From a virus: a stretch of 64,000 bases of DNA. Where the stretch lies: IMG/VR virus record IMGVR_UViG_3300025769_015982, positions 1-64,000 of that record; one strand, 5' to 3'. A model generated the notes under the pieces. It had not been told where the DNA came from. It was given only the letters and a program-made list of their open reading frames with translations, and did no database searches. Positions 6,673 to 64,000 of this stretch are shown here, one piece after another (positions within the stretch are counted from its first letter, which is position 1; each line of letters starts with the position of its first letter). Position numbers and translations under genes: made by a program.

Positions 6673-6677
6673 CAATT

Positions 6678-7100: not shown

Positions 7101-7107
7101 ATAACCC

Positions 7108-37799: not shown

Positions 37800-37991
37800 A
37801 TGGCTTTAAAATTAACATCTGTAAAATTAGAAGAACGTTTATTTGAAGATTTCAAAGTAGCTTCAATTAGACAAAAATTTAATCTTCAAAAATTAGTTAA
37901 TAGAACTATACATCTCTATTTAACTGATGAGGAGTTTGCAAAACAACTTCATACACATACCGATCTGACTGTTAGTGGCAGCGGATTATAA
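37800..37991 (+). CDS. ribbon-helix-helix-like DNA-binding protein
   Basis: 63 aa; LTSVKL strand followed by two amphipathic helices. Confidence 0.55.
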   Translation: MALKLTSVKLEERLFEDFKVASIRQKFNLQKLVNRTIHLYLTDEEFAKQLHTHTDLTVSGSGL

Positions 37992-38011
37992 ACAATAAAA
38001 GGTTTTATTTA

Positions 38012-39481
38012 ATGAAAAAAGGTTATATTCCTAAAGAGGAAAGGAAAAAAATCCTCTTATTATGCGATGATATTCGCCTCCATAGTGGTATTGCTACTAT
38101 GGCTAAAGAAATAGTATTAAATACGGCTCACCATTTTAATTGGATAAATTTAGGAGCAGCTATTAAACATCCGGAAATTGGTAAAGCATTTGATTTAAGT
38201 CAACAAATAAATGAAATTGCAAAAATCCCAGATGCAGACGTAAAAGTTATTCCTTTTGATGGTTATGGGAATGATCAAATTATCCGTCAGTTAATTAATC
38301 AAGAGAAACCAGATGCAATACTTCATTTTACTGATCCACGTTATTGGACTTGGCTATACAGAATGGAAAAAGAAATTAGAACTAAAATCCCTATGGTTTT
38401 TTATACTATTTGGGATGATTTACCATACCCAATGTGGAATAGAGATTTTTACCGTTCAGATGATCTTCTTCTTTGTATTTCAAAACAAACTGAAAATTTA
38501 GTTAAAAATGTACTTAAAGATTACCCAAAAGAAGATTGGCAAGTACAATATATCCCACATGGTATAGATAAAAATAAATTTTTCCCTATAGCTAATGATC
38601 TTGAATTTGACGTATTTAAAGATAAGTTTTATGAAGGTAAGGAATATGATTTTGTAGTATTTTGGAACAATAGAAATATTCGTCGCAAAAACCCAGGTGA
38701 TGTAATTACTGCTTGGAGAGTATTTACAGACCAACTTACCCCAGAACAAGCTGAACGTTGTTTACTTATTATGCACACTGATAAAGTAGATCCTAATGGT
38801 ACTGATATACCTGCAGTTATTGAACACATGTGTGATCCTATAAAAGCTAAAGTTAAGTTCACACATGGTAAGTGTGATGAAAAAATCCTTAATTACTATT
38901 ATAATTTAGCAGACGCTCAATTTATGATGACTGATAATGAGGGTTGGGGTTTATCACTCACAGAAGGTATTATGGCGGGTAATATGGCAATTGCCCCTGT
39001 TCAGGGAGGTATGCAGGATCAAATGCGTTTTGAAGATGAAAACGGTGATTGGATTAATTTCACTACTAAGTTTCCTACTAATAGTAATGGTAAATATGAA
39101 AAATGTGGTGAGTGGGCTATTCCAATGTGGCCTAAAACACGTTCATTAAAAGGATCCCCACAAACCCCATATATTTACGCATCCCAAGTAGATATTGAAG
39201 ACGCGGGTTTAGCACTCTTGAAGTGTTATAATCTTGGCAGAGATGAGATTAGTAAAAGGGGCCTTAAAGGTAGAGAATGGTTAATATCTAATGAGGCTAA
39301 AATGACTTCTAAAGACATGGGAGAAAATTTTATAACTCACCTTGATATTTTATTTAAAAACTGGGAACCTGTAGATAGATTTACTATAGAAAAAGTAGAT
39401 GAAGGGTATACTACATTTAATCCTAATCCAGTACAATATACCCCTAAATTTAAACAAAAATTAAAAGAAATTTTAACATGA
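38012..39481 (+). CDS. glycosyltransferase, GT-B (GT4-like)
   Basis: SGIAT; IPHGID; NRNIRRK; EGWGLSLTE motif. Confidence 0.88.
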   Translation: MKKGYIPKEERKKILLLCDDIRLHSGIATMAKEIVLNTAHHFNWINLGAAIKHPEIGKAFDLSQQINEIAKIPDADVKVIPFDGYGNDQIIRQLINQEKPDAILHFTDPRYWTWLYRMEKEIRTKIPMVFYTIWDDLPYPMWNRDFYRSDDLLLCISKQTENLVKNVLKDYPKEDWQVQYIPHGIDKNKFFPIANDLEFDVFKDKFYEGKEYDFVVFWNNRNIRRKNPGDVITAWRVFTDQLTPEQAERCLLIMHTDKVDPNGTDIPAVIEHMCDPIKAKVKFTHGKCDEKILNYYYNLADAQFMMTDNEGWGLSLTEGIMAGNMAIAPVQGGMQDQMRFEDENGDWINFTTKFPTNSNGKYEKCGEWAIPMWPKTRSLKGSPQTPYIYASQVDIEDAGLALLKCYNLGRDEISKRGLKGREWLISNEAKMTSKDMGENFITHLDILFKNWEPVDRFTIEKVDEGYTTFNPNPVQYTPKFKQKLKEILT

Positions 39482-40794
39482 AGCCAACTTGTATAGTTAG
39501 TTGTCCAATAGATACCTTTAGTGGATATGGACATCGTTCACGTGATTTTGTTCGATCACTTATAGAAGCCAAAAGTAATGATTGGGATATTAAAATTATG
39601 CCTCAAAAATGGGGAAATACCCCATGGGGGTTTTTAGAAGAAACTGATCCTTTAAAACAGTATTATCTTACTCCTGGAGAACACCCCCAACCCGAGGTAT
39701 GGATGCAAATTACAATCCCTAATGAATTTCAAAAACAGGGAAAATACAATATAGGCATAACCGCTGGCATTGAATCTACATGCCCCCCTCCAGACTTTAT
39801 AGAAGGAATGAATAGAATGGATTTAAATTTAGTATCATCTAATTTTACTAAAAATACATTTCAATCCATTAATATTACCCAAAATGATAAGCAGGGGAAC
39901 CCGGTTAAAGAGGTAAAACTAGAAAAACCTATTGAAGTTTTACTTGAAGGTTTAGATACAGGAGTTTATTTTAAAGAACCTAATAAATCAGGACTATTAA
40001 ATAATATTGATGAAAGTTTTTGTTTTTTATTTACAGGCCACTGGTTACCTGGTAATTTTGGGGAAGATAGAAAAGATGTAGCTACCTTAATTAAAACATT
40101 CCTAAAAACATTTAACCAAAGAGGATCTAAACCAGCATTACTTTTAAAAACTAATAAAGTAGATTATAGTCTTTTGGATAAAGAAGAAATTCTTAAAAGT
40201 ATAAGGGAAATTAGAAATCAATTTGAATATAAAAATAATCTTCCTAATATTTACATTCTCCATGGCGAATTTACTAATGAAGAGTTAAATAAAATTAACA
40301 ATGACCCTAAAGTTAAAGCATTTGTTTCTTTTACTAAAGGTGAAGGTTTTGGTCGTCCATTACTTGAACAAGCAATTACGGGTAAACCTGTAATTACAAC
40401 TAACTGGAGTGGTCATACTGATTTTATTCGCCCTGAATATAATGTATTGCTTGGGGGCGAATTAAAAAATATTCATAAATCGGCTGCTAATAATTGGCTA
40501 TTAGAACAAGCCCAATGGTTTGATGTTAATGAAGAAATAGCTTCTAAAGCTATGAAAAATGTTTATAAAAATTATAAAAAGTATATTGAGCAAAGTAGAA
40601 AACAAACTAAATGGTTAAAAGAAAACTTTAGTCAAAATAAAATGACTGAAACATTAAAACAGTATATGGATAAAGTAGGTATAGTATCTAATGTTCCTTT
40701 ACAATTACCACAGTTAAAGAAATTAAATAGTTCTCCTACAAATACTGAACCCCCAAAACTTAAACTCCCTCAACTTAAAAAAATACCAGTATGA
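39478..40794 (+). CDS. glycosyltransferase, GT-B (GT4-like)
   Basis: SGYG; RKDV; EGFGRPLLE...PVITTNWSGH. Confidence 0.88.
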   Translation: MKPTCIVSCPIDTFSGYGHRSRDFVRSLIEAKSNDWDIKIMPQKWGNTPWGFLEETDPLKQYYLTPGEHPQPEVWMQITIPNEFQKQGKYNIGITAGIESTCPPPDFIEGMNRMDLNLVSSNFTKNTFQSINITQNDKQGNPVKEVKLEKPIEVLLEGLDTGVYFKEPNKSGLLNNIDESFCFLFTGHWLPGNFGEDRKDVATLIKTFLKTFNQRGSKPALLLKTNKVDYSLLDKEEILKSIREIRNQFEYKNNLPNIYILHGEFTNEELNKINNDPKVKAFVSFTKGEGFGRPLLEQAITGKPVITTNWSGHTDFIRPEYNVLLGGELKNIHKSAANNWLLEQAQWFDVNEEIASKAMKNVYKNYKKYIEQSRKQTKWLKENFSQNKMTETLKQYMDKVGIVSNVPLQLPQLKKLNSSPTNTEPPKLKLPQLKKIPV

Positions 40795-41246
40795 CAACAG
40801 AATTAATAAAATGTCCTTGTTGTAATTCAGATGCTTGTTCCGTAACCACGAATAATGATGTTAAAATTTACTTATGTTGGACGTGTGGGATGACTACAAC
40901 TAGTGAGTTAATTGATGGTAGTAATTTTGAAAAAGAAAATTATGAACACACTGCAGAATTAATTAAAGATTTAAAACAAGTACATGATAATTTAGCTTGG
41001 TACCCTAAAGTCATTAACTTACAAGAAAACGGAATGGTATTCCCTGAATGGAATAAACGAGTTAAAGATTGGTATTGGGCAGCTGTTAAAGCAATTCCTG
41101 TAACAGAGAAAGAAAAAGAAAAATACCCTGACCCTAATAATCCTGGTGAATTTTATAAATTTAAAACTGACATTAAAAATATAAAACGTTATGACAAGTT
41201 ATGTTTTATGGATGCCGCTGAAGAAATAGGAATGTTTGAACCATGA
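40791..41246 (+). CDS. hypothetical protein with N-terminal zinc finger
   Basis: CPCC...CWTCG. Confidence 0.55.
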   Translation: MTTELIKCPCCNSDACSVTTNNDVKIYLCWTCGMTTTSELIDGSNFEKENYEHTAELIKDLKQVHDNLAWYPKVINLQENGMVFPEWNKRVKDWYWAAVKAIPVTEKEKEKYPDPNNPGEFYKFKTDIKNIKRYDKLCFMDAAEEIGMFEP

Positions 41247-41860
41247 AAATAAGTTACGCAATACCGGTCCACAATGAGTATAAAGAAATAGATAGATTAC
41301 TTGAACATCTTCTTAAATATAAAAGAAAAGAAGACGAAATCGTAGTACAATGTGATCAAGGCAATACTACAGGAAATGTATATAAAGTATTAAATAAATA
41401 CGAAAAGCAAATTCATATAATTGAATTTCCCCTAAATAGAGATTTTGCAAATTTTAAAAATAATCTAAAAAATAATTGTGAAGGAGATTGGATTTTTCAA
41501 ATTGATGCTGATGAAATACCTGATGAATATTTAATTTCTACTTTACATGCTATTTTAAAAGAAAACCCAACTACTGAAGTATTTTGGGTTCCTAGGATTA
41601 ATACAGTACATGGTATAACAAAAGAACATATCCAAAAATGGAGGTGGATTGTAGACCACGATGGAAGAGTTAATTTTCCTGATTACCAATGTAGAATCCT
41701 CCAAAATACTCCTAAGATACAATGGGTTAGTAAAGTCCATGAAGTATTACATGGACATAGTAGCCAAACTAAGTTACCCCAAAACGATGAATTTTGTCTT
41801 ATTCATCCTAAATCTATTGAAAGGCAAGAACACCAGAATAAACTATATAGTGCAATATGA
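41243..41860 (+). CDS. glycosyltransferase, GT2
   Basis: ISYAIPVHNE; WIFQIDADE; PDYQCR; VHE. Confidence 0.88.
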   Translation: MKISYAIPVHNEYKEIDRLLEHLLKYKRKEDEIVVQCDQGNTTGNVYKVLNKYEKQIHIIEFPLNRDFANFKNNLKNNCEGDWIFQIDADEIPDEYLISTLHAILKENPTTEVFWVPRINTVHGITKEHIQKWRWIVDHDGRVNFPDYQCRILQNTPKIQWVSKVHEVLHGHSSQTKLPQNDEFCLIHPKSIERQEHQNKLYSAI

Positions 41861-42726
41861 TTTTTTGGAGAATATTTAACAATACTTTATACCCCGTAAA
41901 AGAAGTAGAAAAGTTAGGATTTGAAAAATCTGAAGGATTAAGAATCCCTGATGAATATTTAGAATCTCGTAATTTTACTGTTTTAAGGACTATAAAAGGT
42001 ATAGGTGATTGGGGTATTATTTCTGCTATGCCTCGACTGTTAAAAACTAAATATCCTGATTGTAAAGTATTTATACCTTCTAATAAACTTTTTAAAAAAT
42101 TATTTGATATAGATACTAATATAATGTATGATATTTTTTCAAATAATCCCTACGTAGATGGATTTTCGGATGAAATACAAGGAGAAATATTTCATGATCA
42201 TTACCGAATATATGATAATGATAACCCTAATATTCCCTTATTAGAACAAATGTTAAAATTTTGGCAATTTGAGGAACATGAATATCAAGATTCACAACCT
42301 GAACTTTATTGGTCGGACGAAGAAAAACAGTTAGGAGATGCTATTATTGAAAAGTACACAAAGAATCAAGAATTTGGTGCATTACTTATATCGGAAAGAT
42401 TTGGCACACAATTTGGAAAATACGATGAAGTTAGTTATATTAATGATTATAAAAAAATAAATAATTTATTAGACAAATTTCAATTACCCTATTTTTATTG
42501 GACTTACAAACCTTTAGCATCATTTAATTTTAACACTGTAGATCCTATTTTAGATATGCACAATATGGATTTAAGACTACAATTATACATTAAATCTAAA
42601 GCCAAAGTAAATATTAGTAACCAATGTGGTACAAACCATTGTGTAGTTAGATATTCAGACGTTTATGAGGTTAAAAGACAATCTATACTAGGATTAAATT
42701 TTGTAAAAGGAGAAAATTACATATGA
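41857..42726 (+). CDS. GT9 (heptosyltransferase)-like glycosyltransferase
   Basis: GIGDWGIISAMPRLLKTKYPD and FSNNPYVD motifs. Confidence 0.6.
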   Translation: MIFWRIFNNTLYPVKEVEKLGFEKSEGLRIPDEYLESRNFTVLRTIKGIGDWGIISAMPRLLKTKYPDCKVFIPSNKLFKKLFDIDTNIMYDIFSNNPYVDGFSDEIQGEIFHDHYRIYDNDNPNIPLLEQMLKFWQFEEHEYQDSQPELYWSDEEKQLGDAIIEKYTKNQEFGALLISERFGTQFGKYDEVSYINDYKKINNLLDKFQLPYFYWTYKPLASFNFNTVDPILDMHNMDLRLQLYIKSKAKVNISNQCGTNHCVVRYSDVYEVKRQSILGLNFVKGENYI

Positions 42727-43439
42727 ACAAAAAAGTAATATACACATCTATATTCGGTAATTATGATACGTTACCTGATATAACCTATTACCCCCCAGGT
42801 TTTGATTTTATATGCTTTACGGATTCTGATATACAAGCATTAGGGTGGAAGGTAATTAAAGTTCTTCCTCTATATAATGATAATACAAGGAATGCTAAGA
42901 AATATAAGATATTACCTCATAGATATTTAAAAGATTATGAAATAAGTATTTATATTGACGGTAATTTTTCTGTTACTAAGGATATTAATAAATTAATTGA
43001 TTTATATTTAATAGATGCAAATGCCGCTTTTCATAATCACTCTAAAACTGCATTAGATCCTCGAAATTGTATATATCAGGAAGCTAATATTATACTATCA
43101 TTTGGTAAAAGAAATATGCAACTTTGGCCTGAAAGAGGTATGTTAAACTATAAAGATAACCCTGAAACTATAATAAAACAGGTCCAAAAATATCAAAGTG
43201 AAGGATATCCTCAAAATAATGGTTTAATAAAAGGTGGTATTATTTTACGTAGACATAATGAAAAGGAATGTATAACTGCAATGGAAAATTGGTGGTCCGA
43301 AATAAAATATCATAGTAAACGAGATCAATTAAGTTTTAATTATGTTGCATGGAAAACTAATTTTAAATTTAATTATATGCCCCACGACATCCGCAATAGC
43401 GAATATTTTTCATATAATAAACATAACCACCAAAAATGA
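42723..43439 (+). CDS. DUF616 (TOD1/MUCI70-like) glycosyltransferase
   Basis: [10 protein letters not shown]; KILPH; YIDGN; RNCIYQE; RDQLSFNY. Confidence 0.8.
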
Positions 43440-44179
43440 TCGAATTAGATAAAATAGTAAAATGGGCTAAAAATAATAATTTAGTTTATAAATTAAATCC
43501 TAATTATTCTTCTTCTCACTTAATAAAATCACCTTGGAATATTAAAGAATCAACTTCTTATAATATTTCATTTATAACCCAAGGATGGGTAAGTAATAAT
43601 GCTGGAGTTGTATTTGCCTCAGAAACCCCTGAACATATTGACTCATTATTAGTTATAATCACAACCAGCCCAAAATACCATTTTATAAAGTGCATCAATG
43701 AATTTTTTAAACCTAATAAATGTGTAGTAACTAAAGGTAAGAATGTTCAAATAGGTCAAAATTGTTCTATAGGGAACGATGGTTTTCAGTATGTGCATGG
43801 ACCTAAAGGTGATATAGTAAAATTCCCTCACTTTGGAAACATTATTATAGAAGATAATGTAGAAATTGCTAATAATGTATGCATTGATAGGGGTGCTTTA
43901 AGTAATACTATAATCCGTAAAGGAGTAAAAATAGATAATTTAGTACACATTGCACACAATGTAGAAATAGGAGAAAACACTATGGTAGTAGCATTAGCCA
44001 TGATTGCGGGAAGTGTTAAAATTGGAAAAAATTGTTGGATTTCTCCTTCTAGTAGCATTAGAGAACAGCTTACTATTGGGGATAATGTTTTAATAGGATT
44101 AGGGGCAGTTGTAATAAAAGATGTTGAATCAAATTCTGTTATGGTAGGTAATCCTGCCAAGCTATTAAGAAAACAATAA
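43436..44179 (+). CDS. hexapeptide-repeat acyltransferase (LpxD-like)
   Basis: IGNDGF; IEDNVEI; IDRG; [12 protein letters not shown]; GNPAK. Confidence 0.85.
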
Positions 44180-44187
44180 TATAAAAG

Positions 44188-44991
44188 ATGGAAAATATAG
44201 TTTTTATACCTTATATAAAAAGAAATAAATCATTAGGAAATTCTGGTGTAGCTAAACCCCGGTGGGATACTGGATATGATTATGGGATAGATTCATGGAA
44301 AAAATGGTCTAACAAAAATAATTGTAAACTTATAATTATGGACGAATTAATGCTCCCCGAAGAGGAAATGTTAATTACGTGGCAAAGGTGGAATGTTTTA
44401 AACATATTAGAGCATAACAATGTTGATTATAATCAGGTTTTAGTAGTAGATGCTGACAGTATTGTACATCCAGATTGTCCCAATTTTTTTGAATTAACTG
44501 ATAATAAGTTTACTTCTCAAATTACTGACGGGTGTTATGAATGGGTTAACAGAGCTATCCGAGGTTACTCACAAACATTTTTTAATAAAAAAAATTGTCT
44601 TAAACCTTATGAATTTTTCCAAACAGGTTTTGTTATTTGTAATAAAACCCATAAGGAATTTTTTGATAAAGTATTTAAATTTTATTGGGAAAATAAGAAT
44701 AACATAATTAAATCATATGATACTTTAAAAACAGGTAGTGATATAGCTCTTTTAAATTGCCTTAGAAAGGAGTATAATATTGAACTAAATATTTTGCCTA
44801 GAGAGTATAGCATTATGGATGTAACTAGGAAAAATTTATTATATTATGATAATAGACAATGGTGGGAAGATAGTTTAGAAAATTTAATAAATTCTGGTTG
44901 GATATACCAGTTTACTTCTATACCCGAAAATTCTTTAAATAGAGACCGAAAATATTGGATGGAAAGAATACATAAAGAACTAAGTATATGA
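44188..44991 (+). CDS. GT-A fold glycosyltransferase (GT8/GT34-like)
   Basis: YNQVLVVDADSIVHPDCPNFF; FQTGFVI; D..LLN. Confidence 0.65.
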   Translation: MENIVFIPYIKRNKSLGNSGVAKPRWDTGYDYGIDSWKKWSNKNNCKLIIMDELMLPEEEMLITWQRWNVLNILEHNNVDYNQVLVVDADSIVHPDCPNFFELTDNKFTSQITDGCYEWVNRAIRGYSQTFFNKKNCLKPYEFFQTGFVICNKTHKEFFDKVFKFYWENKNNIIKSYDTLKTGSDIALLNCLRKEYNIELNILPREYSIMDVTRKNLLYYDNRQWWEDSLENLINSGWIYQFTSIPENSLNRDRKYWMERIHKELSI

Positions 44992-45413
44992 AAAAGATTA
45001 TAGGTTTTACTAGTGGATATTTTGATATCATGCACCCAGGACATGTTATGATGCTACAAGAATGTAAAAGATATTGTGACTACTTAATAGTAGCTGTAAA
45101 TGAATATAAAAATAAAACCCCCCAACCTGATGGGAGATTTAAAAACGAACCCATATGGAATCCTAATGAGAGATTATTGATGGTTTCATCTTGTAAATAT
45201 GTGGATGAAGCTTTTTTGTATGATGGAGAACAGGAGTTATATAATTATTTAAAACATAATTTAGAAAGATTAGATGTTAGAATGGTAGGAGAAGACCATA
45301 AAGGTAAACCTTTTACTGGTAATGATCTAGATTTACCTATTATATTCAATAGTAGAAACCATAATTACAGTACTACTAACACTATTAAATTAATAATAGA
45401 AAAAAGAAAGTAA
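44988..45413 (+). CDS. cytidylyltransferase (TagD/RfaE-like)
   Basis: GYFDIMHPGH; R..MVSSCKYVDE; GEDH; R.HNYSTT. Confidence 0.88.
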   Translation: MKKIIGFTSGYFDIMHPGHVMMLQECKRYCDYLIVAVNEYKNKTPQPDGRFKNEPIWNPNERLLMVSSCKYVDEAFLYDGEQELYNYLKHNLERLDVRMVGEDHKGKPFTGNDLDLPIIFNSRNHNYSTTNTIKLIIEKRK

Positions 45414-46159
45414 TGAAAATTGAATTTATATTTTCGGAATTTGGGCCAAGAACCCAAGCCAATCAACAATGGGTTAATTCCATCCCCAGGTTAGATCCTA
45501 CATATAGTTCTGTAAAAACTTACTTCCCCGAAGCTAACTTAGTTCTATATACAGATAGACCAGAAATTAAAAACGATTATAAAGATATTGAAGTAAGATT
45601 AATTGACGTAGATAAAAGTCCTTTTAATAAAAAAAATCACAGATGGGGATGGCATTGTTGTGACTATTACCAAGTACTAGGATTATTAAATTCAAAAGCA
45701 GATATAGCAATTTCTTGTGATTCTGATCTAATGTTTATCTCTGATCAAGTAAAAACGTTAATCCCTATAATTGAAAAATTTGGAATATGTGTACCTACAA
45801 ATGAAAGACAACTAGTTAAAGTTGATGGCATACATACTAGGGGAAATGATGGAGATTATTACCTTGATGAAGATCAAAGTATGGGTAATCTATTAACATA
45901 TGACTTATGGTGGGCTGGATTTAATACTAAAGATAACCGAGCTAGAAAGTATTTAGAAGAATTTTGTAATCTTATGAAAACCAACCCTAAAAGAGCCCCA
46001 TTACAAATGACTCGAGCTGCATGGAATACAGGTATTTATCCATATTCAACCCCCCAACAGTGGGGTGTGGGTTCGGGTTATATTGGTTGTGGTAATGAAA
46101 TTATATTACATGTAGGTCATAAAAATGTACAAGATTTTTATTTAGAAAAAAGTATATGA
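45413..46159 (+). CDS. putative GT-A fold glycosyltransferase
   Basis: LYTD and DSD (DxD) motif; glycan cluster context. Confidence 0.45.
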   Translation: MKIEFIFSEFGPRTQANQQWVNSIPRLDPTYSSVKTYFPEANLVLYTDRPEIKNDYKDIEVRLIDVDKSPFNKKNHRWGWHCCDYYQVLGLLNSKADIAISCDSDLMFISDQVKTLIPIIEKFGICVPTNERQLVKVDGIHTRGNDGDYYLDEDQSMGNLLTYDLWWAGFNTKDNRARKYLEEFCNLMKTNPKRAPLQMTRAAWNTGIYPYSTPQQWGVGSGYIGCGNEIILHVGHKNVQDFYLEKSI

Positions 46160-48688: not shown

Positions 48689-48696
48689 TAAAAATA

Positions 48697-51098: not shown

Positions 51099-51110
51099 AA
51101 AATTAAACAC

Positions 51111-56076: not shown

Positions 56077-57266
56077 AGAATAAGCTTTTAAATCATCTTA
56101 AAATAGGAAAAATTTATAAACCAGAAAATAAGTATAATGGTAATGAATTAGAATATGTGTTAAAAGTTTTAGATTCAGAAGATCAAGATAGAAAAGAAAC
56201 CCCTTTTGTTCAGCGTTTAGAAAATTTAGCAACGGAAGTTTTCCAAAGTAAATATGCTATAGCTCACAATTCGGGAACATCTACTTTACATACAAGCTTA
56301 ATTGCGGCAGGGGTAAAACCTGGGGATGAAGTAATATCACCCGCTCATACTGTAATTATGAATTCATTTGTAACATTACACCAAAAGGCATTGCCCGTAT
56401 ACGTTGATATTGACCCAGATACTTTTAATATGTGTCCCGATGATCTTGAACGTAAAATAACTAATAAAACAAAAGCAATACAAGTAGTTCATATGCATGG
56501 AAACCCATCTGATATGGAAAGAATAATGGATATAGCAAACCATTATAATATACCTGTTATTGAGGATAGTGCTCAATGTGTTTTAAGTAAAATTAATGGA
56601 AAATTAGTTGGAACTTTTGGGGATATAGCAAGTTGGAGTTTTGAAAATAAAAAACACCTTTCAGCCGGAGAGGGGGGAATGGTTACTACTGATAATGAAA
56701 AATATGCTACTATAATCAGAAAAACAGGTGGATTAGGATATAAAACATTATCAGCAGGACAAAGTTTAAGACAATTGTTACCCCAGGACTTTCAAAACCC
56801 ACATTATAAAAGACATGATGTTTTAGGCTACAACTATAGAATGAATGAGATAACTGCTGCTTTAGCATTAGGTCAATTAGAAAGAGCAGAATTTTTAGTA
56901 AATAGAAGGTGTGAAGTAGCTAAAATGTATGATGAAGCCTTTAAAGATTGTGATTATATAATACCCCAAAAAGTATTACCGGGCCATACAAATACCTATT
57001 GGACATACACAGTACGATATGAAAGGGATGATTGGTTTGATTTATATAATGAAGTTAAAGCAGCTGGAGGAGATGGGTTTTATGGAGGCTTATCAGTCCC
57101 CTATCAGGAACCCATTATGAAAAAATACAATTATAAAAAAGGAGACTGCCCAAATGCAGAATCTGTACAACCAAAAATGATGCAATTTAAAGCAAATTAT
57201 AGAGATCTTAAAACAGCTCAAGAAAAAATTAATATATTAAGTAACGTAATTAAAAATAGAAAATAA
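56052..57266 (+). CDS. DegT/DnrJ/EryC1/StrS sugar aminotransferase, copy 2
   Basis: NSGTSTLH; IEDSAQ; SFENKKHLSAGEGG; GYNYRM. Confidence 0.9.
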   Translation: MERKPVKLKNKLLNHLKIGKIYKPENKYNGNELEYVLKVLDSEDQDRKETPFVQRLENLATEVFQSKYAIAHNSGTSTLHTSLIAAGVKPGDEVISPAHTVIMNSFVTLHQKALPVYVDIDPDTFNMCPDDLERKITNKTKAIQVVHMHGNPSDMERIMDIANHYNIPVIEDSAQCVLSKINGKLVGTFGDIASWSFENKKHLSAGEGGMVTTDNEKYATIIRKTGGLGYKTLSAGQSLRQLLPQDFQNPHYKRHDVLGYNYRMNEITAALALGQLERAEFLVNRRCEVAKMYDEAFKDCDYIIPQKVLPGHTNTYWTYTVRYERDDWFDLYNEVKAAGGDGFYGGLSVPYQEPIMKKYNYKKGDCPNAESVQPKMMQFKANYRDLKTAQEKINILSNVIKNRK

Positions 57267-58090
57267 TGAAAAATTATATTATTGCCGAAATAGGAATCAA
57301 CCATAATGGAGATATAAACCTAGCACAAAAACTCATTAAAACAGCTGCAAAAGCAGGTTGTCATGCTGTAAAGTTTCAAAAAAGAACAATTGATGAAGTC
57401 TATTCTAAAGAAGAACTAGATAAGTATAGAGAGTCTCCCTGGGGGACTACAAATAGAGAACAAAAAGAAGGATTAGAATTTGATATTCAACAATATAAAA
57501 CTCTTGAGGAATATACAAACAAATTAGGTTTGGATTTTATAGTATCTTGTTGGGATTTAAATAGTGTAGATGTAGTAGAAGCAAATTTAAATGTAAAATA
57601 TCATAAAGTTGCTTCAGCTCTTGCAACTAATAAAGAATTTTTAAAAAAACTTAACACAACAGGTAAACCTGTTATATTATCTGTAGGTATGATGACAGAG
57701 AAAGAAATCGAATCTGCAGTAAATATACTTAATAACGTAGAATATATTTTAGCTTGTACTAGTACTTATCCTACAAAGGCCGAAGAAGTTAACCTAAATC
57801 ATATTTTAACATTAAAATCCAAGTATGATAAAAAAATAGGATTTTCAAACCATTATAATGGCCTAGATGCATGTGTAGGTGCAACAGCGTTAGGATCGGA
57901 ATGCATCGAATTCCATATAACAGAAGATAGAACAATGTATGGCTCTGATCAACCTGCATCAATTGAAAACGTATCACTAATGGTAGATGCTATTACAACA
58001 ATGGAAACTATGTTAGGAGATGGTAAGAAAGTTGTTTATGATACCGAAAAACCTATTGCAGCTAAGTTAAGGAAAGTTAATAATGTTTAA
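57266..58090 (+). CDS. neuB: nonulosonic acid (N-acetylneuraminate-type) synthase, lacking the SAF domain
   Basis: IIAEIGINHNGD; AVKFQKR; KVAS; CTSTYP; GFSNH; IEFHIT..R...GSD. Confidence 0.9.
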   Translation: MKNYIIAEIGINHNGDINLAQKLIKTAAKAGCHAVKFQKRTIDEVYSKEELDKYRESPWGTTNREQKEGLEFDIQQYKTLEEYTNKLGLDFIVSCWDLNSVDVVEANLNVKYHKVASALATNKEFLKKLNTTGKPVILSVGMMTEKEIESAVNILNNVEYILACTSTYPTKAEEVNLNHILTLKSKYDKKIGFSNHYNGLDACVGATALGSECIEFHITEDRTMYGSDQPASIENVSLMVDAITTMETMLGDGKKVVYDTEKPIAAKLRKVNNV

Positions 58091-58799
58091 TTTAAACGGT
58101 AAAGTAGCTGTAATTACAGGAGGAGGGGGATTGCTAGGAAAAATGCACGCTGAGGCAATAGAAGAAGCAGGAGGTACAGCTTATTTAACTGACATAGATG
58201 GTTCTTGTACCTATATGGATGTAACTAATAAATCTAGTATAGAAAAAGTTGCAAATAGTTTAGACCGGGTTGATATTTTAATAAATAATGCTGCCTTAAA
58301 TCCTAAAATGGTTACTCAGGGTAATAATAAATTTGAAAATTTAAGCCTAGACCAATGGAATAAAAGTATTCAAGTAAATTTAACAGGTGCTTTTTTATGT
58401 AGTCAAGTTTTTATTAAAAAAATGGTAGAACATAATATTAAAGGAGTTGTAGTAAATATAGCATCTGATTTAGGGGTTATAGCCCCTGATCAAAGAATAT
58501 ATAAAAATGATGTTAAGCCTGTTGATTATTGTGTTACTAAACATGGTATAATTGGATTAACTAAATATTTAGCTACCTATTATGCTGATAAAGGAATTAG
58601 AATTAATAGTATAAGTCCAGCAGGAGTATTTACAAATCAACCTAAAGATTTTGTAGAAAAGTTATCTAATTTAATACCTATGGGAAGAATGGCAAAAAAG
58701 AATGAATATAAAGGCGCTATAAAATATTGTTGTTCAGATGAAAGTTCATACATGACTGGACACAATTTAGTAATAGACGGTGGGAGAACAATATGGTAA
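58083..58799 (+). CDS. short-chain dehydrogenase/reductase (PtmA-like)
   Basis: TGGGGLLG; LINNAA; YCVTK; IRINSISP; IDGG. Confidence 0.9.
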   Translation: MFNLNGKVAVITGGGGLLGKMHAEAIEEAGGTAYLTDIDGSCTYMDVTNKSSIEKVANSLDRVDILINNAALNPKMVTQGNNKFENLSLDQWNKSIQVNLTGAFLCSQVFIKKMVEHNIKGVVVNIASDLGVIAPDQRIYKNDVKPVDYCVTKHGIIGLTKYLATYYADKGIRINSISPAGVFTNQPKDFVEKLSNLIPMGRMAKKNEYKGAIKYCCSDESSYMTGHNLVIDGGRTIW

Positions 58800-59086
58800 T
58801 ATTTGTAGATATAGACGAAACAATATGTTTTTATGATGGGGAAAGGTATTACCCAAATGCGATTCCTAATATGGATAATATAGCTAAAATCAATAAATTA
58901 TATAATGAAGGTCATACAATTATATATTGGACAGCTAGAGGAGGCACTACGGGTATAGATTGGACTGAAATAACAAAAGCACAACTTGTAAAATGGAAAT
59001 GTAAATATCATGAATTACGGATGAATAGTAAACCTTACTATGATTTATTAATATGCGATAAAACTAAAAGAATAGAAGAATTATGA
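58793..59086 (+). CDS. minimal HAD-family phosphatase
   Basis: DIDETI; WTARG; KP.YDLLICDK. Confidence 0.8.
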   Translation: MVIFVDIDETICFYDGERYYPNAIPNMDNIAKINKLYNEGHTIIYWTARGGTTGIDWTEITKAQLVKWKCKYHELRMNSKPYYDLLICDKTKRIEEL

Positions 59087-59739
59087 AGTCAATTTCAGTA
59101 TTATGTAGAGGAGAAAGTTTAAAAGCTATAAAACACCTACCTAAATCAGATATAGTAATGTTAGCTAATAGGTTTGGTGAAGAAATAGAAAATGTCCCTG
59201 GGGTAAAAGAATATCTTGATGACGCAGAAATATACTTGTGTACTAGTGGTACTGGTGGAGAATTAGATTCTTTAAAACGAATAGATTTTTTTGAAAAATA
59301 TAACCCTACAAAAATGATACGACCTTATTTAGGTGAAATATCTTCTAATATAAGACTACATAACAGCTGTAATTTACCAAATACGTTTTTATCTGAAGCC
59401 CATAAAGAATATATGGTTCCAATGAAATACCCTTATGACTACCCTACAACCGGTATAGCAGCAATAGGTTATGCTGTTTTAGAGTCTGAATGTGATACTA
59501 TTAATATAATTGGGTTAGATTTTTATGAAAACAGTGCCTACACTACTTCACAACAACTTAATCTTGAAGAAATATATAAAACAGATCCTTGGATTAAAGA
59601 CGGTAATATGGAAAAATTCTTTACTAAATTTGTAAAAAATAACCCAAATAAACAATTTAATATAATAACAACTGCTAAGACCTATTTGAATGAACTAATA
59701 ACATTAGCTAATGTAAATTACTATAATATAGCTTTTTAA
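59083..59739 (+). CDS. sialyltransferase-like protein (GT42/GT29-type motifs)
   Basis: VLCRGESL (cf. GNGPSL); MLAN; PTTG; IIGLDFY; directly after the neuB module. Confidence 0.6.
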   Translation: MKSISVLCRGESLKAIKHLPKSDIVMLANRFGEEIENVPGVKEYLDDAEIYLCTSGTGGELDSLKRIDFFEKYNPTKMIRPYLGEISSNIRLHNSCNLPNTFLSEAHKEYMVPMKYPYDYPTTGIAAIGYAVLESECDTINIIGLDFYENSAYTTSQQLNLEEIYKTDPWIKDGNMEKFFTKFVKNNPNKQFNIITTAKTYLNELITLANVNYYNIAF

Positions 59740-59740
59740 T

Positions 59741-60403
59741 ATGAAAAAAACTTTAATAACCGGATGTAGTTGGATTCAAGAAATGTATAAGTATAATTCA
59801 AAATTTGATTATGCTTCTTTTGGGGGCCAAGGTCTTTGGAAAATATATAATCATTTACGTGAGGGTAATATAGAGGGGTATGAAACTATTATAGTGCAAC
59901 TTCCTGCTCCTGTTAGAAACCACCCTAATTGTACTTCTACTACTGATAGATTTAATAATTTTTTAGATAGTATAAAAAAATCAGGAGAACAAAAAGCTTC
60001 AAAAACCCAATTAGATAATTATAAACAAAAAATATTAGATATAAATCTTTTACATAAAAACATATATTTTTTTCTATATAATGTTGGAGGTTATCCTTTA
60101 AGACATCCTTATGATTTTGGTGAAAATGCTAATAAAGATTTTATTAATTGGCTTAAAGAAAATAATTTAAATCATTTACACTTGTCCTTTGAAAACCAAG
60201 CAGGTTATGGTGTAAAAGAAAAATTTGAACCTGATTTAGAATTTTGGGAATATTATCATAAAGAAAATCCTCACAACCGATCAGATAAGCAATTTAAAAA
60301 ATATTGGAGCATAATAGCACCTAAAAATACAATAATTTTTGATCCCCACCCTAATAAAAAAGCTGATATACTAGCATTAGAACTAATAAGTAAAATAACA
60401 TGA
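59741..60403 (+). CDS. SGNH/GDSL-like hypothetical protein
   Basis: N-terminal GCS, GGQG and C-terminal DPHPN (DxHP). Confidence 0.55.
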   Translation: MKKTLITGCSWIQEMYKYNSKFDYASFGGQGLWKIYNHLREGNIEGYETIIVQLPAPVRNHPNCTSTTDRFNNFLDSIKKSGEQKASKTQLDNYKQKILDINLLHKNIYFFLYNVGGYPLRHPYDFGENANKDFINWLKENNLNHLHLSFENQAGYGVKEKFEPDLEFWEYYHKENPHNRSDKQFKKYWSIIAPKNTIIFDPHPNKKADILALELISKIT

Positions 60404-60510
60404 AATTTTTAAAAAAACTTTGGAATTTAATAAAGTCTTGGAGAAAAAAAAGACAATTTAAAAAAAAGATAAAACAAATGAATATAAAGGATCCTTTTAT
60501 ATATAAATAA
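60400..60510 (+). CDS. unannotated 36-aa basic peptide ending PFIYK
   Basis: MKFLKKLWNLIKSWRKKRQFKKKIKQMNIKDPFIYK*; ATGA overlap upstream and 1-nt gap to the carbamoyltransferase gene. Confidence 0.6.
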   Translation: MKFLKKLWNLIKSWRKKRQFKKKIKQMNIKDPFIYK

Positions 60511-60511
60511 T

Positions 60512-61966
60512 ATGAGAATTTTAGGTATAAATTGTCTTAATCATGATGCTGCTATTTCTGTTATTGAAGATGGAAACATATTATTTGCAGCTCATTCTGA
60601 AAGATATAGTCGTCAAAAAAATGATATGTATCTTAATGATAGTATTATAAATGAAGCTTTTAGTTATGGGAAACCTGATAAAATTGCGTATTATGAAAGG
60701 CCCTGGATTAAAAAATCTAGGCAGTTATATGCAGGTCAATATAATGAGGTTTTTAATTTAAATAATTTACCTAGTAAATATTTATCCCCCTGGTTGAAGG
60801 AATATAAAATTCATTATGTAGACCACCATCTAAGCCATGCAGCGGCAGGTTATTATACTTCCCCGTATGATGAAGCCGCTATATTAGTTATTGATGGTAT
60901 TGGTGAATGGGATGTTTTAACTATATGGCACGGAAAGGGGAATGATATAAAAAAAATATATAGTGTTAAGTATCCTCACTCTTTAGGTTTATTTTATTCG
61001 GCAGCCACCCAAGCTATTAATTTAAAACCCTGTGAAGAAGAATATATTTTAATGGGTATGTCTGCTTGGGGTAAAGATAAACACTGGAAGCAGTTTAAAA
61101 ATGATTTATTTGATAGTGATAAATTATTACGACTTAATCATAACATACATAGAGGAATAGGATCATATAGTAAAGAGTGGGACCGATTTGATGTAGCCGC
61201 TAGTACCCAAACCTTAACAGAATATATCTTAGATAAGATTATTAATCACACAAAACAGCTATTACCTAATGTAGATAATTTAGTTTACATGGGTGGGTGT
61301 GCTTTAAATTGTGTAGCTAATGGAAAAATTTTACCTAAATATTATTCAAACCATTGGATAATGCCTAATCCCGGAGACGCAGGTTCATCATTAGGGGCAG
61401 CAGCAGCATTATATAAAAAACCTATTAAATGGGAAGGACCCTTCTTAGGATCTGAAATCAAAGGTAAATATCCTGTAAAAGAAGCCTGCAAGTTGCTGTT
61501 AAAAGGTGAAATAATAGGAATAGCTAATGGTAAAGCAGAATTTGGACCTAGGGCATTAGGAAACAGAAGTTTACTTGCAGATCCTCGTGGATTTAAAATT
61601 AAAGATAAAGTTAATGAAATTAAACGTAGACAAAAATTTAGACCATTTGCCCCGGCAATAATGGAAGAACATGCTCATAAAATCTTTGAAATGCCCGTAA
61701 AAAGAATACCATATATGCAATACACAGCAAAATGTAAATATCCTGATAAATATCCTGCTATTTGTCATATTGATAATACTAGTAGAGTACAAACAGTATC
61801 TAAAAAAGATAATCCAGGTTTTTATGCTCTACTAAAAGAATTTTATACAAAAACAGGATGTCCTATGTTATTAAACACTAGTCTTAATATTAAAGGTCAA
61901 CCTATAGTTAATTCTAAACAGGATGCTGTAGATTTTGAAAATCATTATAATATAAAAGTACTATAA
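60512..61966 (+). CDS. O-carbamoyltransferase (NodU/CmcH family), copy 2
   Basis: NHDAA; ERYSRQK; HHLSHAA; IDGIGE; GGCALNC; GDAG; EFGPRALGNRS; LNTSLN. Confidence 0.93.
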   Translation: MRILGINCLNHDAAISVIEDGNILFAAHSERYSRQKNDMYLNDSIINEAFSYGKPDKIAYYERPWIKKSRQLYAGQYNEVFNLNNLPSKYLSPWLKEYKIHYVDHHLSHAAAGYYTSPYDEAAILVIDGIGEWDVLTIWHGKGNDIKKIYSVKYPHSLGLFYSAATQAINLKPCEEEYILMGMSAWGKDKHWKQFKNDLFDSDKLLRLNHNIHRGIGSYSKEWDRFDVAASTQTLTEYILDKIINHTKQLLPNVDNLVYMGGCALNCVANGKILPKYYSNHWIMPNPGDAGSSLGAAAALYKKPIKWEGPFLGSEIKGKYPVKEACKLLLKGEIIGIANGKAEFGPRALGNRSLLADPRGFKIKDKVNEIKRRQKFRPFAPAIMEEHAHKIFEMPVKRIPYMQYTAKCKYPDKYPAICHIDNTSRVQTVSKKDNPGFYALLKEFYTKTGCPMLLNTSLNIKGQPIVNSKQDAVDFENHYNIKVL

Positions 61967-61967
61967 A

Positions 61968-62540
61968 GTGGAAAATATTAATTTTGTAAATATGCATAGG
62001 TATCAGAACATAGAAAGAACTGTGTACCAAAAAGTGATAGAATGGAAACCTAAAACAATAGTAGAATTAGGCCATGGGTCGGGTGCTTTAACTTCTGCTA
62101 TGGGTCTTGCTTTAAAAAAACTAAATAATAATGGAAAAATATATAGTTATGATGTTAACGGAACTTCTAACTATACTTTAGGTCTAATGTCTAAATCGGC
62201 CCTAGAAAATGTAAAAGAAAGAAAATTAACCGATATAGTTGAATTTACAAAAGGAAATGTTTTTGAAACATGGGTAAAAGATCCATTTCCATTTGATTTA
62301 TTATTAATAGATATTAATAATACATGGAATATATTATATGATATTTTAATAGCTAATACTTTTATTAATAATGAAATAAAAAAAGGAGCTAAAATCTTAG
62401 TAGAGGGAGGTGATCCTAACCACCCTAGAATAAATTCTAATACATTAGATTTTTTTAACAATAGTTGTAATAAAAACATCTTTACTATAGAACATTTAAG
62501 TGGTTCTGGGAGAACCAGCATATCAATATTAACAATATGA
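61968..62540 (+). CDS. class I SAM-dependent methyltransferase
   Basis: IVELGHGSG; IYSYD; FDLLLID. Confidence 0.75.
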   Translation: MENINFVNMHRYQNIERTVYQKVIEWKPKTIVELGHGSGALTSAMGLALKKLNNNGKIYSYDVNGTSNYTLGLMSKSALENVKERKLTDIVEFTKGNVFETWVKDPFPFDLLLIDINNTWNILYDILIANTFINNEIKKGAKILVEGGDPNHPRINSNTLDFFNNSCNKNIFTIEHLSGSGRTSISILTI

Positions 62541-63412
62541 AAAAACTAGCAGTAATAGCGAGTGGTTGGCATTATTCATCACATTTTTATGAAAAAATAG
62601 CCAAACAACAGAAAGTAGAAGGATGGGACATAGAATTATTTGTGATATCTCATAGACACCCTGAACATAAAGACACAATAAAGGAAAAAGAACACGTTAG
62701 AAATTATGAAGGGAAAGAATTAATGACTTACCTTGATAAGGTAATGTATGAAACCCCTATAACTGAAAAAGAAATAACAGATTTAGGATGGACTTATATT
62801 GAAAAACCCAACACGATAGGAGATATGGAGGTTTTTAACCAATGGTCTGATGACTATAATTATTTAGATTACGATTTATTCCTTATAACCCATGATGATA
62901 ATTTTATTTTATCAGATAAAATATTTAAAGATATTTTACTTAATAACATAGAGTTACATAAACCTATTATAGAATCAAAATATGGAAACCATCAATTTAA
63001 AACCCAACTAGTAGATAATAACTTAGATTGGATGTTTTTAGATAATGGATATTCAGAATACATAGCTAAGGCTTTTACTCCAAGAGGATCTTTTAGTTTT
63101 TATAAAAAAGAACTCATAGATTTATTACCTAATAATAAATTTAATATGTACGAAGATGGAGGAACAGGAATAGTTAATCGAGAGGGAAAAACTAATAGTG
63201 TTGGGCATGAAGGAATTTCAGCCTGGAATACTCACGCAGGCACTTTTAGAAATGCTTTGTATGATTTAGACCTAGTTAAACACACTCGTTGGTTATCAAG
63301 TACTAAACGTGTTAGTAATTATTGCATTGAAGGTGAAAGGGGTTTTATTAGTAATAATAATTGTGGGGAAAAGCACTATAAAACCTCAGTAAAACAAATA
63401 TTTGAAAAATGA
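62537..63412 (+). CDS. putative GT-A fold glycosyltransferase
   Basis: N.IGD...N; YDLFLITHDD motif; cluster context. Confidence 0.5.
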   Translation: MKKLAVIASGWHYSSHFYEKIAKQQKVEGWDIELFVISHRHPEHKDTIKEKEHVRNYEGKELMTYLDKVMYETPITEKEITDLGWTYIEKPNTIGDMEVFNQWSDDYNYLDYDLFLITHDDNFILSDKIFKDILLNNIELHKPIIESKYGNHQFKTQLVDNNLDWMFLDNGYSEYIAKAFTPRGSFSFYKKELIDLLPNNKFNMYEDGGTGIVNREGKTNSVGHEGISAWNTHAGTFRNALYDLDLVKHTRWLSSTKRVSNYCIEGERGFISNNNCGEKHYKTSVKQIFEK

Positions 63413-64000
63413 TAAATACTCCTGTTATACATGATAGGCATATAGTAAAAGATGTTTTTAATCAAATTATAAAAAGTAAAATATATAAAGATGCTTTTAA
63501 TAAACCCGATAATTTAACAATAGTAACTGTTAGAAACGAAGGTACTATGGAAGATAGAATTATACCTTCATTAAAAGGTTATGAAGATAAATCAATATTA
63601 GAAGCTAATCTGGAATATTTAGGAATAAAGCCCTTAACTATACTAACAGACTCTAGATTACCTTGGAGAAATACTTTCAAGTTTGAAATAATATTAGACT
63701 ATTTAAATTCGGGAAAATGCGATACAGAATATTTTATGTTTTGTGATGCTATAGATGTTATATTTACAGATGATCCCCAAAAAGTTATTAATATATTTGA
63801 ATCATTTGAATGTGATGCCTTATTTATGTCTACACATTCTACAGATGGTTATAAATGCATGCCCGGAGTTAAAAAATTTATAGATGAAACTATAAAAAGT
63901 AATAGAAGATACTTAAATAGTGGAGTATATATAGGTAAAACTTCTTTTATAAAAGAAATATTTGAAGAAGCTATTAAATATGCTATTCCTCATGGGGTTA
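63409..64000 (+). CDS. PLOD/LH3-type glycosyltransferase domain protein (3'-truncated by the window edge)
   Basis: Not in the ORF track. ATG at 63409 (ATGA overlap) and open to the window end; FMFCDAIDVIF and RYLNSGVYIG motifs. Confidence 0.7.
   Translation, partial: MINTPVIHDRHIVKDVFNQIIKSKIYKDAFNKPDNLTIVTVRNEGTMEDRIIPSLKGYEDKSILEANLEYLGIKPLTILTDSRLPWRNTFKFEIILDYLNSGKCDTEYFMFCDAIDVIFTDDPQKVINIFESFECDALFMSTHSTDGYKCMPGVKKFIDETIKSNRRYLNSGVYIGKTSFIKEIFEEAIKYAIPHGV

Follow-up and report, generated by a model that had tools for sequence, protein, structure and literature searches.

Several groups of viruses are known to carry genes for glycan synthesis. In the Megavirinae (mimivirus, megavirus, and tupanvirus), clusters of 6 to 33 genes glycosylate the capsid fibrils and, while keeping their place in the genome, differ from clade to clade (Notaro et al. 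2022, PMC10117803). Among phages, pelagimyophages and cyanomyophages carry a hypervariable "host recognition cluster" (HRC) between VrlC and gp14 (Zaragoza-Solas et al. 2020, PMC7029224), and cyanophage S-SCSM2R has a cell-wall gene set of 22 genes, with 13 glycosyltransferases (GTs), which was called possibly the most in a marine phage (PMC12801897). According to the account of Freeman et al. 2023 given in PMC12619734, phage-encoded soluble GTs of mycobacteriophages act in the cytoplasm on the phages' own capsid and tail-tube subunits, and these are cited there as the only phages with experimentally shown virion glycans. Here, we describe a glycan biosynthesis island of 38 open reading frames (ORFs) in the IMG/VR virus record IMGVR_UViG_3300025769_015982. 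The window, i.e., the 64,000-nucleotide (nt) stretch analyzed, forms the beginning of a single viral contig, which is 86,012 bp long and has an estimated CheckV completeness of about 52%; positions beyond it are given as contig positions. Hypervariable GT islands in marine myophages have already been published, and the present locus is set apart by its position, its purely glycan-related content, a fixed head with exact breakpoints, and its size, which exceeds that of the largest reported giant-virus cluster (33 genes). On the evidence of sequence comparison, its architecture and hypervariability mark the block as an allele of a glycosylation locus that is phage specific and conserved among immuto-like aquatic myoviruses. 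What is new here is that this locus is lineage-wide and combines a fixed head with a swappable cassette, and that the allele is the largest seen of a widespread locus not yet characterized experimentally.

The original prediction, made from the window alone, described a translationally coupled run of more than 26 kb and about 30 genes, and the block proved to be larger still. ORFs follow one another on the plus strand without a break from position 38012 to contig position 69603 (38 ORFs in 31.6 kb), reaching 5.6 kb past the window end, and 32 of the 38 start within the window. Neighboring ORFs overlap at 29 of the 37 junctions, 21 of these being 4-nt ATGA overlaps. Only one gap is longer than 12 nt, namely, an AT-rich intergenic stretch of 108 nt on the plus strand (60404..60511) which ends in TTTTATATATAAATAAT and is possibly an internal promoter or a cassette seam. 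All genes of the contig lie on the plus strand. Positions 1 to 37.8 kb encode a tail sheath, UvsX, a DnaB-type helicase, ribonucleotide reductase, a split family B polymerase, GroEL, a clamp loader, FolE2, and a PD-(D/E)XK nuclease, and the region downstream of 69603 contains small phage-type ORFs, HSP20, a MoxR ATPase, DUF932, and tRNA-bearing intergenic regions. One such region, of 492 nt (contig 79157-79648), holds tRNA-like sequence (e.g., GTAGCTCAGTTGGTTAGAGC...); the window has no tRNA. The arrangement of the whole region is syntenic with that of Flavobacterium phage immuto, and the contig is, by its gene content and order, a fragment of an immuto-like myovirus. Since phage genes lie on both sides of the island and synteny with immuto is retained, the contig is not a phage-host chimera, a possibility that had been raised beforehand.

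The gene order of immuto illustrates the organization of the locus. There, the preQ/DpdA genes, the polymerase, GroES/EL, and the PD-(D/E)XK nuclease are followed by a 60-amino-acid (aa) ORF, two GTs, a hypothetical protein, and a GT2 enzyme, and then by about 10 more glycan genes, a closing GT2, and DksA-like, HNH-like, and DUF932 genes. Microcystis phage Mel-JY01 has an approximately 6-kb version of the island after the PD-(D/E)XK nuclease gene, and the same head is therefore found behind this gene in Flavobacterium and Microcystis phages, whose hosts belong to different phyla. Most genes downstream of the head are present in only 0 to 5 of 81 related loci. The replacement is sharpest in two close relatives, G006 and G007, whose flanks have 79 to 83% nucleotide identity to the contig: homology stops exactly at 41860, the stop of the head GT2 gene, and resumes at 69605, just past the last island gene, with no nucleotide similarity to G006 or G007 between 41861 and 69604. 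The cassettes of these relatives are 12.0 and 12.9 kb long and are unrelated to each other and to the present one. The conserved HNH-like gene lies 12.2 to 25.2 kb from the first GT in ten relatives and 32.9 kb from it here, which makes the present island the largest of the 11 measured. When the ORFs of 40 loci were grouped together with those of this locus, 165 families were obtained, 107 of which were singletons, and the Pfam assignments of the cassette families were almost wholly of sugar chemistry (epimerases/dehydratases, GT2, FkbM/TylF methyltransferases, acetyltransferases, aminotransferases, and pyruvyl transferases). Besides, for 13 of the 34 cassette ORFs, the cassette of another phage holds a relative with at least 30% identity, indicating that modules are shuffled among phages; a fusion of HAD and nucleotidyltransferase domains, for instance, has a 76% identical copy in one other locus (L014).

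A drop in G+C content (0.26 to 0.31 in the cassette versus 0.31 to 0.39 upstream) and the presence of several enzymes shorter than their families (the RmlD-like protein, DegT, and the UDP-sugar dehydrogenase) might be taken as signs of an assembly artifact, a phage-host chimera, or a decaying, nonfunctional insertion. We regard such an origin as very improbable in view of the phage genes on both flanks, in the order seen in immuto and in the relatives G001 and G002, the breakpoints exactly at gene ends, the 38 of 38 ORFs that are intact and tightly coupled, and the 11 other genomes that have the island at the same place. The short enzymes themselves, i.e., the RmlD-like protein of 236 aa (profile positions 2 to 149 of 287) and the 310-aa DegT protein, both within 53738-55373, a 274-aa NeuB protein without the SAF domain, and a 289-aa UDP-sugar dehydrogenase without the C-terminal domain (contig 68734-69603), may be minimal forms or the products of decaying genes.

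The head of the island is made up, in this order, of a small ORF and the genes for two GT4 enzymes, a zinc-ribbon protein, and a GT2 enzyme, all on the plus strand, each being found in 53 to 81 of the 81 related loci. The small ORF (37800..37991; 63 aa) occurs in all 81. Its identity as a ribbon-helix-helix regulator was not confirmed, the Pfam RHH_4 match being below threshold (E = 0.14) and a sequence search giving no PDB match. Core glycosyltransferase 1 (38012..39481; 489 aa; here, GT489) is a predicted GT4-type enzyme of the GT-B fold, with an EX7E motif (E310...E318) that is invariant in 23 sequences, and its AlphaFold2 (AF2) model (pLDDT, 86) gave Foldseek matches to generic GT4 proteins (PimB', sucrose-phosphate synthase, and chlorovirus B736L). 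Relatives of GT489 were found in at least 599 IMG/VR loci and as 397 representatives at an E value of 1e-30 or lower in a 50%-identity protein library, whereas only 10 loci were found among 185,579 prokaryotic species genomes, all of them on contigs of metagenome-assembled genomes; judged by this distribution, the family is in practice phage specific. In one relative (L015), the GT489 gene is interrupted, the match spanning 2.2 kb (5013-7203) for about 476 aa, which implies an insertion, and the head GT4 of Mel-JY01 (83441-84932, L103) is annotated as two adjacent coding sequences. Core glycosyltransferase 2 (39478..40794; 438 aa) is a GT4-like GT-B protein with a weak Pfam Glycos_transf_1 match, a phrog_2170 match (E = 4e-19), and an EGFGRPLLE (EX7E) motif, and is present in 69 of the 81 loci. 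We also considered the two GT-B proteins as a pair of the GtfA/GtfB type (the O-GlcNAc transferase of Ser-rich adhesins and its inactive partner); the sizes fit, but both proteins have the EX7E motif and the fold search returned generic GT4 enzymes, and this candidate was rejected. The third core protein (40791..41246; 151 aa), with an N-terminal CxxC...CxxC zinc ribbon, is found in 59 of the 81 loci; it had no family match, and a protein atlas was uninformative. Core glycosyltransferase 3 (41243..41860; 205 aa) consists of a GT2 catalytic domain alone (Pfam Glycos_transf_2, E = 2e-14); it is found in 53 of the 81 loci, and its gene is the last conserved one ahead of the cassette.

A promoter-like motif, TATATGTAT, lies on the plus strand at 37774..37782, 26 nt upstream of the small ORF heading the island. 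The shorter form ATATTTAT occurs 15 times in the 86-kb contig, 8 of the occurrences lying 22 to 69 nt upstream of starts, and precedes the tail sheath (1206) and tail tube (3385) genes as well as the genes at 4959 and 6678. In the form ATAT(T/G)TAT, at 22 to 35 nt before the start, the motif is common to the island head, the tail sheath, the tail tube, and neighboring structural genes, and the exact (A)TATATTTATATA is found at the island-head position in most of about 60 relatives. An early-type motif, TTGG-N-CGTATATTTA[AG], was seen only at 77 to 85 kb and not at the island head. The motif of the tail-gene type at the head therefore gives a hint on timing, namely, that the island may not belong to the early class. 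In the early-type region (contig 76978-84816), we observed a series of near-identical elements, each made up of TTGG, about 15 to 20 nt, and (T)CGTATATT(T/A/C)A, and each heading one to three small ORFs; they form a class distinct from the ATATTTAT motif of the tail genes and the island. Just past the island, ATATTTAT stands ahead of the first ORF (69627), and a TTGG-type element is seen in the intergenic region that comes next (69993-70035).

We further examined whether functions for glycan export accompany the island. Export families were searched by profile in five records, i.e., this contig, the complete relatives G001 and G002 (both 100% complete), immuto, and Mel-JY01, with control genomes positive each time. 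There was no match in any of the five records to the Wzx flippase (Polysacc_synt, PF01943; 13 of 14 control genomes positive), the Wzy polymerase or O-antigen ligase (PF04932), initiating transferases of the Bac_transf (PF02397) and WecA/MraY (PF00953) types, or the ABC-2 type permease (PF01061; 14 of 14 controls positive). Hydropathy scans detected no transmembrane (TM) segment in any of the 38 island ORFs, no Wzx- or Wzy-like polytopic protein in G001, G002, and immuto, and no ORF with three or more hydrophobic segments downstream of the first GT in the 81 related loci. The original prediction had reported soluble enzymes and no flippase, Wzy, ABC exporter, or initiating transferase in the window, and this now holds for the whole 86-kb contig and four complete relatives; export or polymerase genes that it had envisaged just beyond the window are missing from the remaining 22 kb. 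These results support its proposal of a self-contained soluble pathway without export, polymerase, and initiating functions. It had also argued against classic serotype conversion. None of the five records gave a match to a tyrosine integrase (PF00589), serine integrases not being searched for; classic serotype conversion of the lysogenic type is therefore unlikely, and the island has no TM protein of the kind. The phages of this lineage appear to be virulent.

A 317-aa membrane protein is encoded just ahead of the island, at 36814-37767; in it, about 130 aa of coiled coil separate three TM segments at the N terminus from a single one at the C terminus. It had no family match and is kept in the close relatives and in immuto (gp185, beside endolysin and holin genes). 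We considered it as a Wzz-like or other export component and rejected this assignment, which has no family support; the gene adjoins the island only in close relatives, and gp185 stands beside lysis genes. The product may be a lysis protein or an envelope-spanning protein.

The variable cassette on the plus strand (41861..64000, continuing to contig 69604; 27.7 kb and 34 ORFs in total) begins with a TOD1/MUCI70-type GT-like protein (42723..43439; Pfam PF04765, E = 1e-16), a left-handed beta-helix (LbH) N-acyl/acetyltransferase (43436..44179; Pfam Hexapep, E = 1e-19), whose NCBIfam matches to LpxD-like and NeuD/PglB/VioB-like proteins were all below cutoff, and a small cytidylyl/adenylyltransferase resembling TagD and RfaE domain II (44988..45413; Pfam CTP_transf_like, E = 1e-11, and NCBIfam). 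These are followed by the above-mentioned fusion of a beta-phosphoglucomutase-like HAD domain with a sugar-1-phosphate nucleotidyltransferase (46156..47508; Pfam HAD_2, E = 6e-32, and NTP_transferase, E = 5e-12; NCBIfam bPGM and RmlA-long) and by a first carbamoyltransferase of the NodU/CmcH type (48697..50319; Pfam Carbam_trans_C, E = 5e-63; NCBIfam NodU below cutoff). A putative branched amino-deoxysugar module (51111..55373; Methyltransf_14, E = 1e-49; FdtA, E = 2e-42; RmlD_sub_bind, E = 1e-28; DegT, E = 3e-33) comprises a nucleoside diphosphate-hexose C-methyltransferase (51111), two cupins (RmlC/FdtA-like), a 2-oxoglutarate-Fe(II) oxygenase, the short RmlD-like reductase, and the short DegT aminotransferase. 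Farther downstream lie a second carbamoyltransferase (Carbam_trans_C, E = 1e-55; 32% identical to the first) together with a Methyltransf_24-type methyltransferase (61968; E = 4e-7), both within 60512..62540, and a PLOD-GT-like glycosyltransferase (63409..64000, with the ORF ending at contig 64149; Pfam GT_PLOD, E = 2e-8). The latter is followed by a PIG-L deacetylase, a PseB-like dehydratase, a 310-aa protein, a 406-aa GT2 enzyme (66654), an epimerase/dehydratase, and the short UDP-sugar dehydrogenase, with which the island ends at 69603. The 406-aa GT2 is semiconserved, and its homologues close the island in immuto, G001, and G002. A resemblance to ppGalNAc transferases (GT2 plus Glyco_transf_7C, with a hint of a 26-residue beta-trefoil) was considered for this enzyme and not upheld, its C-terminal half being without QxW repeats.

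Between the two carbamoyltransferases lies a putative nonulosonic acid module (55348..59086; Pfam CTP_transf_3, DegT with E = 2e-80, NeuB with E = 8e-65, and adh_short_C2), with a CMP-sugar synthetase-like protein, a PseC/LegC-like aminotransferase, the NeuB-family synthase, a short-chain dehydrogenase/reductase, and a 97-aa HAD-like protein. The PseB-like dehydratase of this pathway lies beyond the window (contig 64803-65723; Polysacc_synt_2, E = 5e-65). The NCBIfam scores (NeuB_NnaB, 233 bits; PseI, 167; PseC, 202; PseB, 193) were all under the equivalog cutoffs, and thus the exact sugars cannot be named. Directly after the module, a 218-aa protein (59083..59739) without a Pfam match, for which a profile search against PDB sequences was also empty, has a predicted sialyltransferase fold of the GT42/Maf-like type in an AF2 model (pLDDT, 84). 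With VIA-align, this model matched Cst-I (2p56; Z = 11.1; 177 residues aligned, 3.8 Å) and Maf (5mu5; Z = 10.2), the next matches having Z values of 8 or lower, and with Foldseek it matched Cst-II at TM-scores of 0.50 to 0.55. It is a probable nonulosonic acid transferase, and by virtue of this fold match the module would have a transferase of its own; Cst-I and Maf are tied, so that the acceptor class is not settled by the fold.

In terms of enzyme families, the reading of the window from its letters fared well. The three nucleotidyltransferases it had listed were recovered by Pfam and NCBIfam at 44988, 46156, and 55348, and the sugar-modifying, acyl, carbamoyl, and methyl transferases were likewise recognized (one LbH acyltransferase, two carbamoyltransferases, and two methyltransferases). 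Its count of about 10 GTs of at least seven types was somewhat generous: six GTs were verified in the window (38012, 39478, 41243, 42723, 59083, and 63409) and a seventh beyond it (66654). Two proteins with domains of unknown function (47951 and 50316) and seven ORFs without any match may or may not include further GTs.

Many of these enzymes would also suit a different cytoplasmic acceptor, such as a nonvirion protein of host or phage, a small molecule, a free oligosaccharide, or a lipid, with the product serving as a decoy, a signaling or protective compound, or a modified motility or secretion protein. Carbamoyltransferases, a C-methyltransferase, FdtA, and aminotransferases are typical also of glycosylated secondary metabolites and Nod-factor-like molecules; the GT4 fold neighbors include the small-molecule enzymes MshA, BshA, and OtsA, and the island has a PIG-L/BshB-like deacetylase; and Maf-type enzymes glycosylate flagellins. 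The fold matches are, however, generic for GT4, and the island holds no genes for the biosynthesis of an aglycone (polyketide synthase, nonribosomal peptide synthetase, or lipid). Furthermore, hypervariability at the strain level suits a recognized surface structure better than a metabolite. We therefore consider an acceptor of this kind distinctly unlikely.

The position of the island, directly after genes for replication and nucleotide metabolism and a PD-(D/E)XK nuclease, would fit yet another acceptor, the phage DNA, on whose modified bases sugars would be placed to block restriction. GT-B enzymes glycosylate T4 DNA. Sugars are reportedly found on modified DNA bases in T-even phages and in the systems of Pyle et al. 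2024. The original prediction had left room for a glycan on DNA, a branch that the following results do not support. Analysis of immuto DNA by liquid chromatography with UV and mass spectrometric detection (LC-UV-MS) gave only dA, dC, dT, and fdPreQ1, the last in place of dG (bioRxiv 10.1101/2023.04.13.536721); immuto has the same head genes, yet no glycosylated nucleoside. The lineage already modifies guanine by means of DpdA and preQ0 genes, and by analogy with the fdPreQ1 of immuto, this 7-deazaguanine chemistry would already account for its DNA modification. A candidate for the ThyA-family hydroxymethylase that hydroxymethyl pyrimidines would require was found in immuto and G001 but not in the complete G002 and Mel-JY01, nor in this approximately 52% complete contig. 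Besides, 38 genes, including a nonulosonic acid pathway, far exceed any known DNA glycosylation system. The DNA reading is thus largely refuted for the head genes, and we give it hardly any credence overall. With regard to the guanine chemistry, the FolE2-type GTP cyclohydrolase is encoded at 26072-27076, within a coupled block of the window at 22252-27076.

We infer the following pathway from the architecture and the enzyme families. The head and the 406-aa GT2 near the other end would probably be responsible for an inner sugar structure that does not vary. The cassette, which would be exchanged by recombination at the conserved flanks, would provide nucleotide-sugar pathways for a nonulosonic acid, a C-methyl-branched amino-deoxyhexose, and a uronic acid, together with carbamoyl, methyl, and acyl tailoring and further transferases, and would in this way give a strain-specific outer glycan. 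Every step would take place in the host cytoplasm, with soluble enzymes and without export on a lipid carrier. The acceptor would most likely be phage determined, with virion proteins, which the original prediction had also proposed, glycosylated before or during assembly, as in mycobacteriophages and the fibrils of Megavirinae. The phage-specific head, its conservation across host phyla, and the promoter motif common with tail genes argue indirectly for such an acceptor. Glycosylation of the virion or of phage proteins is, in our view, the best reading of the locus, although we hold it tentatively and at somewhat less than an even chance.

The foremost alternative is a remodeling of the host envelope, in which the phage enzymes would extend or cap lipid-linked (undecaprenyl-phosphate) or lipid A-core intermediates of the host, and the host Wzx, ABC transporter, and ligase would export the product; the altered surface would block superinfection by competitors or prevent adsorption of the progeny to debris. 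The combination of nucleotide-sugar enzymes and transferases of the GT2 and GT4 types in a low-GC cassette between conserved flanks has the classic look of an O-antigen or capsule locus, the head GT2 is weakly similar in sequence to TarP (a prophage wall teichoic acid transferase) and to ArnC, and the best match of the predicted nonulosonic acid transferase is the lipo-oligosaccharide sialyltransferase Cst-I. On the other hand, the phage-specific head GTs are kept in phages of Bacteroidota and Cyanobacteria, whose envelope glycans differ, and this is hard to reconcile with a host-specific acceptor. Besides, the island has no membrane-associated component in 81 loci, a 38-gene pathway in apparently virulent phages would need to act within one lytic cycle, and the promoter motif of the island is not of the early class. 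Remodeling of the host envelope is accordingly possible, but we think it unlikely.

Several points weigh against glycosylation of the virion and need to be set beside this evidence. GTs of O-antigen pathways are also soluble, and the missing TM segments thus do not discriminate between the readings; an initiating transferase, a flippase, and a ligase could all be supplied by the host. The island is placed after the replication module and not among the structural genes, and ATATTTAT is also found upstream of the nonstructural genes at 14138, 69627, and 73477, so that late timing is not established by it. As judged from its model, the transferase at 59083..59739 is as close to Cst-I, which acts on lipo-oligosaccharide, as to Maf, which acts on flagellin. 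No Ser/Thr-rich candidate acceptor was found in this contig, the genome being about 52% complete. The pelagimyophage islands have been read in print as serving modification of the host O-chain (PMC7029224), and the cyanophage "cell-wall" genes have likewise been taken to act on the host envelope (PMC12801897). In the literature on glycosylated marine phage virions, we did not find a direct precedent.

Candidate acceptors were sought among Ser/Thr-rich proteins, and striking ones were seen in G001 and G002, but they are not conserved. In G001 (complete, 183 kb), four tandem genes on the minus strand (contig 119769-127120; L098-L099) encode proteins of 317 to 1,193 aa, which begin with a common domain of about 80 aa, continue with a very long stretch of TPT[IV]S[IV]TPT repeats (more than 50% Ser/Thr), and end in a domain that contains Cys. 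They are mucin-like and thus candidate acceptors for O-glycosylation, but they are not conserved in this contig, G002, or immuto. In G002, a 500-aa ORF (contig 134439-135941; L091) has a signal peptide, a Thr/Ser/Asn-rich region followed by an acidic low-complexity region, and the C-terminal end ...RFAF. Its product appears to be a phage-encoded outer membrane protein with a beta-barrel-like end, encoded about 5 kb upstream of the G002 island.

A glycan made by the cassette could conceivably also act on the virion as a ligand for host recognition, mimicking a polysaccharide captured by the SusC/SusD-type, TonB-dependent uptake machinery of Bacteroidota. The conserved four-gene head would then anchor the glycan on a conserved virion protein, and cassette swaps would switch or broaden the host range without a change of tail fiber. 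We offer this as speculation and consider it improbable. If a glycan is indeed carried on the particle, complex strain-specific glycocalyces would be common in a large clade of aquatic phages and not a curiosity of mycobacteriophages and giant viruses, which would bear on phage encounters with hosts, grazers, and particles, on the evolution of host range, and on the viral input to marine carbohydrate pools. The cultured phages immuto and Mel-JY01 carry smaller alleles, which makes the purpose of phage glycan islands open to a test at the bench.

Among the systems to which the locus can be compared, bacterial O-antigen and capsule loci have in common with it a low-GC, replaceable cassette of sugar pathways and transferases between conserved flanks and the same enzyme families, whereas an initiating phosphoglycosyl transferase, a flippase, a polymerase, a chain-length regulator, and an ABC exporter are all missing from the island, here and in the complete relatives. 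Temperate serotype-conversion modules (gtrABC, oac, and wzy) come with an integrase and membrane-bound Gtr proteins; here, there is no tyrosine integrase, and the island encodes no TM protein. With the nonulosonic acid systems of the Campylobacter type (Pse/Leg with Maf; Cst), the island has in common PseB-like, PseC/LegC-like, NeuB-family, and CMP-activating enzymes and an adjoining transferase of the GT42/Maf fold, but all its matches are under the equivalog cutoffs, its NeuB protein has no SAF domain, and its transferase amounts to a minimal domain of 218 aa.

Among phages, the closest analogues are the HRC and the cyanophage gene sets, which are likewise large, nonsyntenic islands of aquatic myophages, rich in GTs and deoxysugar genes, with no export genes and no established function. 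The HRC lies inside the structural module and mixes tail fiber genes with auxiliary metabolic genes; in contrast, the present island follows PolB, GroEL, the clamp loader, and the PD-(D/E)XK nuclease, consists of glycan genes only, without a fiber gene, and has a fixed four-gene head and exact breakpoints. The mycobacteriophage systems, as far as the description in PMC12619734 goes, have one to a few GTs and no nucleotide-sugar pathways, unlike this island. Soluble GTs that are independent of lipid-carrier export, the mark of virus-encoded virion glycosylation, are found in the island as well. The nearest functional analogue is given by the Megavirinae clusters, which are also virus encoded and self-contained, with rare amino-sugar pathways of the bacterial type and several soluble GTs, and which also vary between conserved genes at a fixed position. 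They belong to eukaryotic giant viruses whose fibril glycans have been shown chemically, whereas the present locus belongs to a tailed phage and is known from its genes alone; it is larger, with its 38 genes, and it varies even among close relatives, whose flanking nucleotide sequences are about 80% identical.

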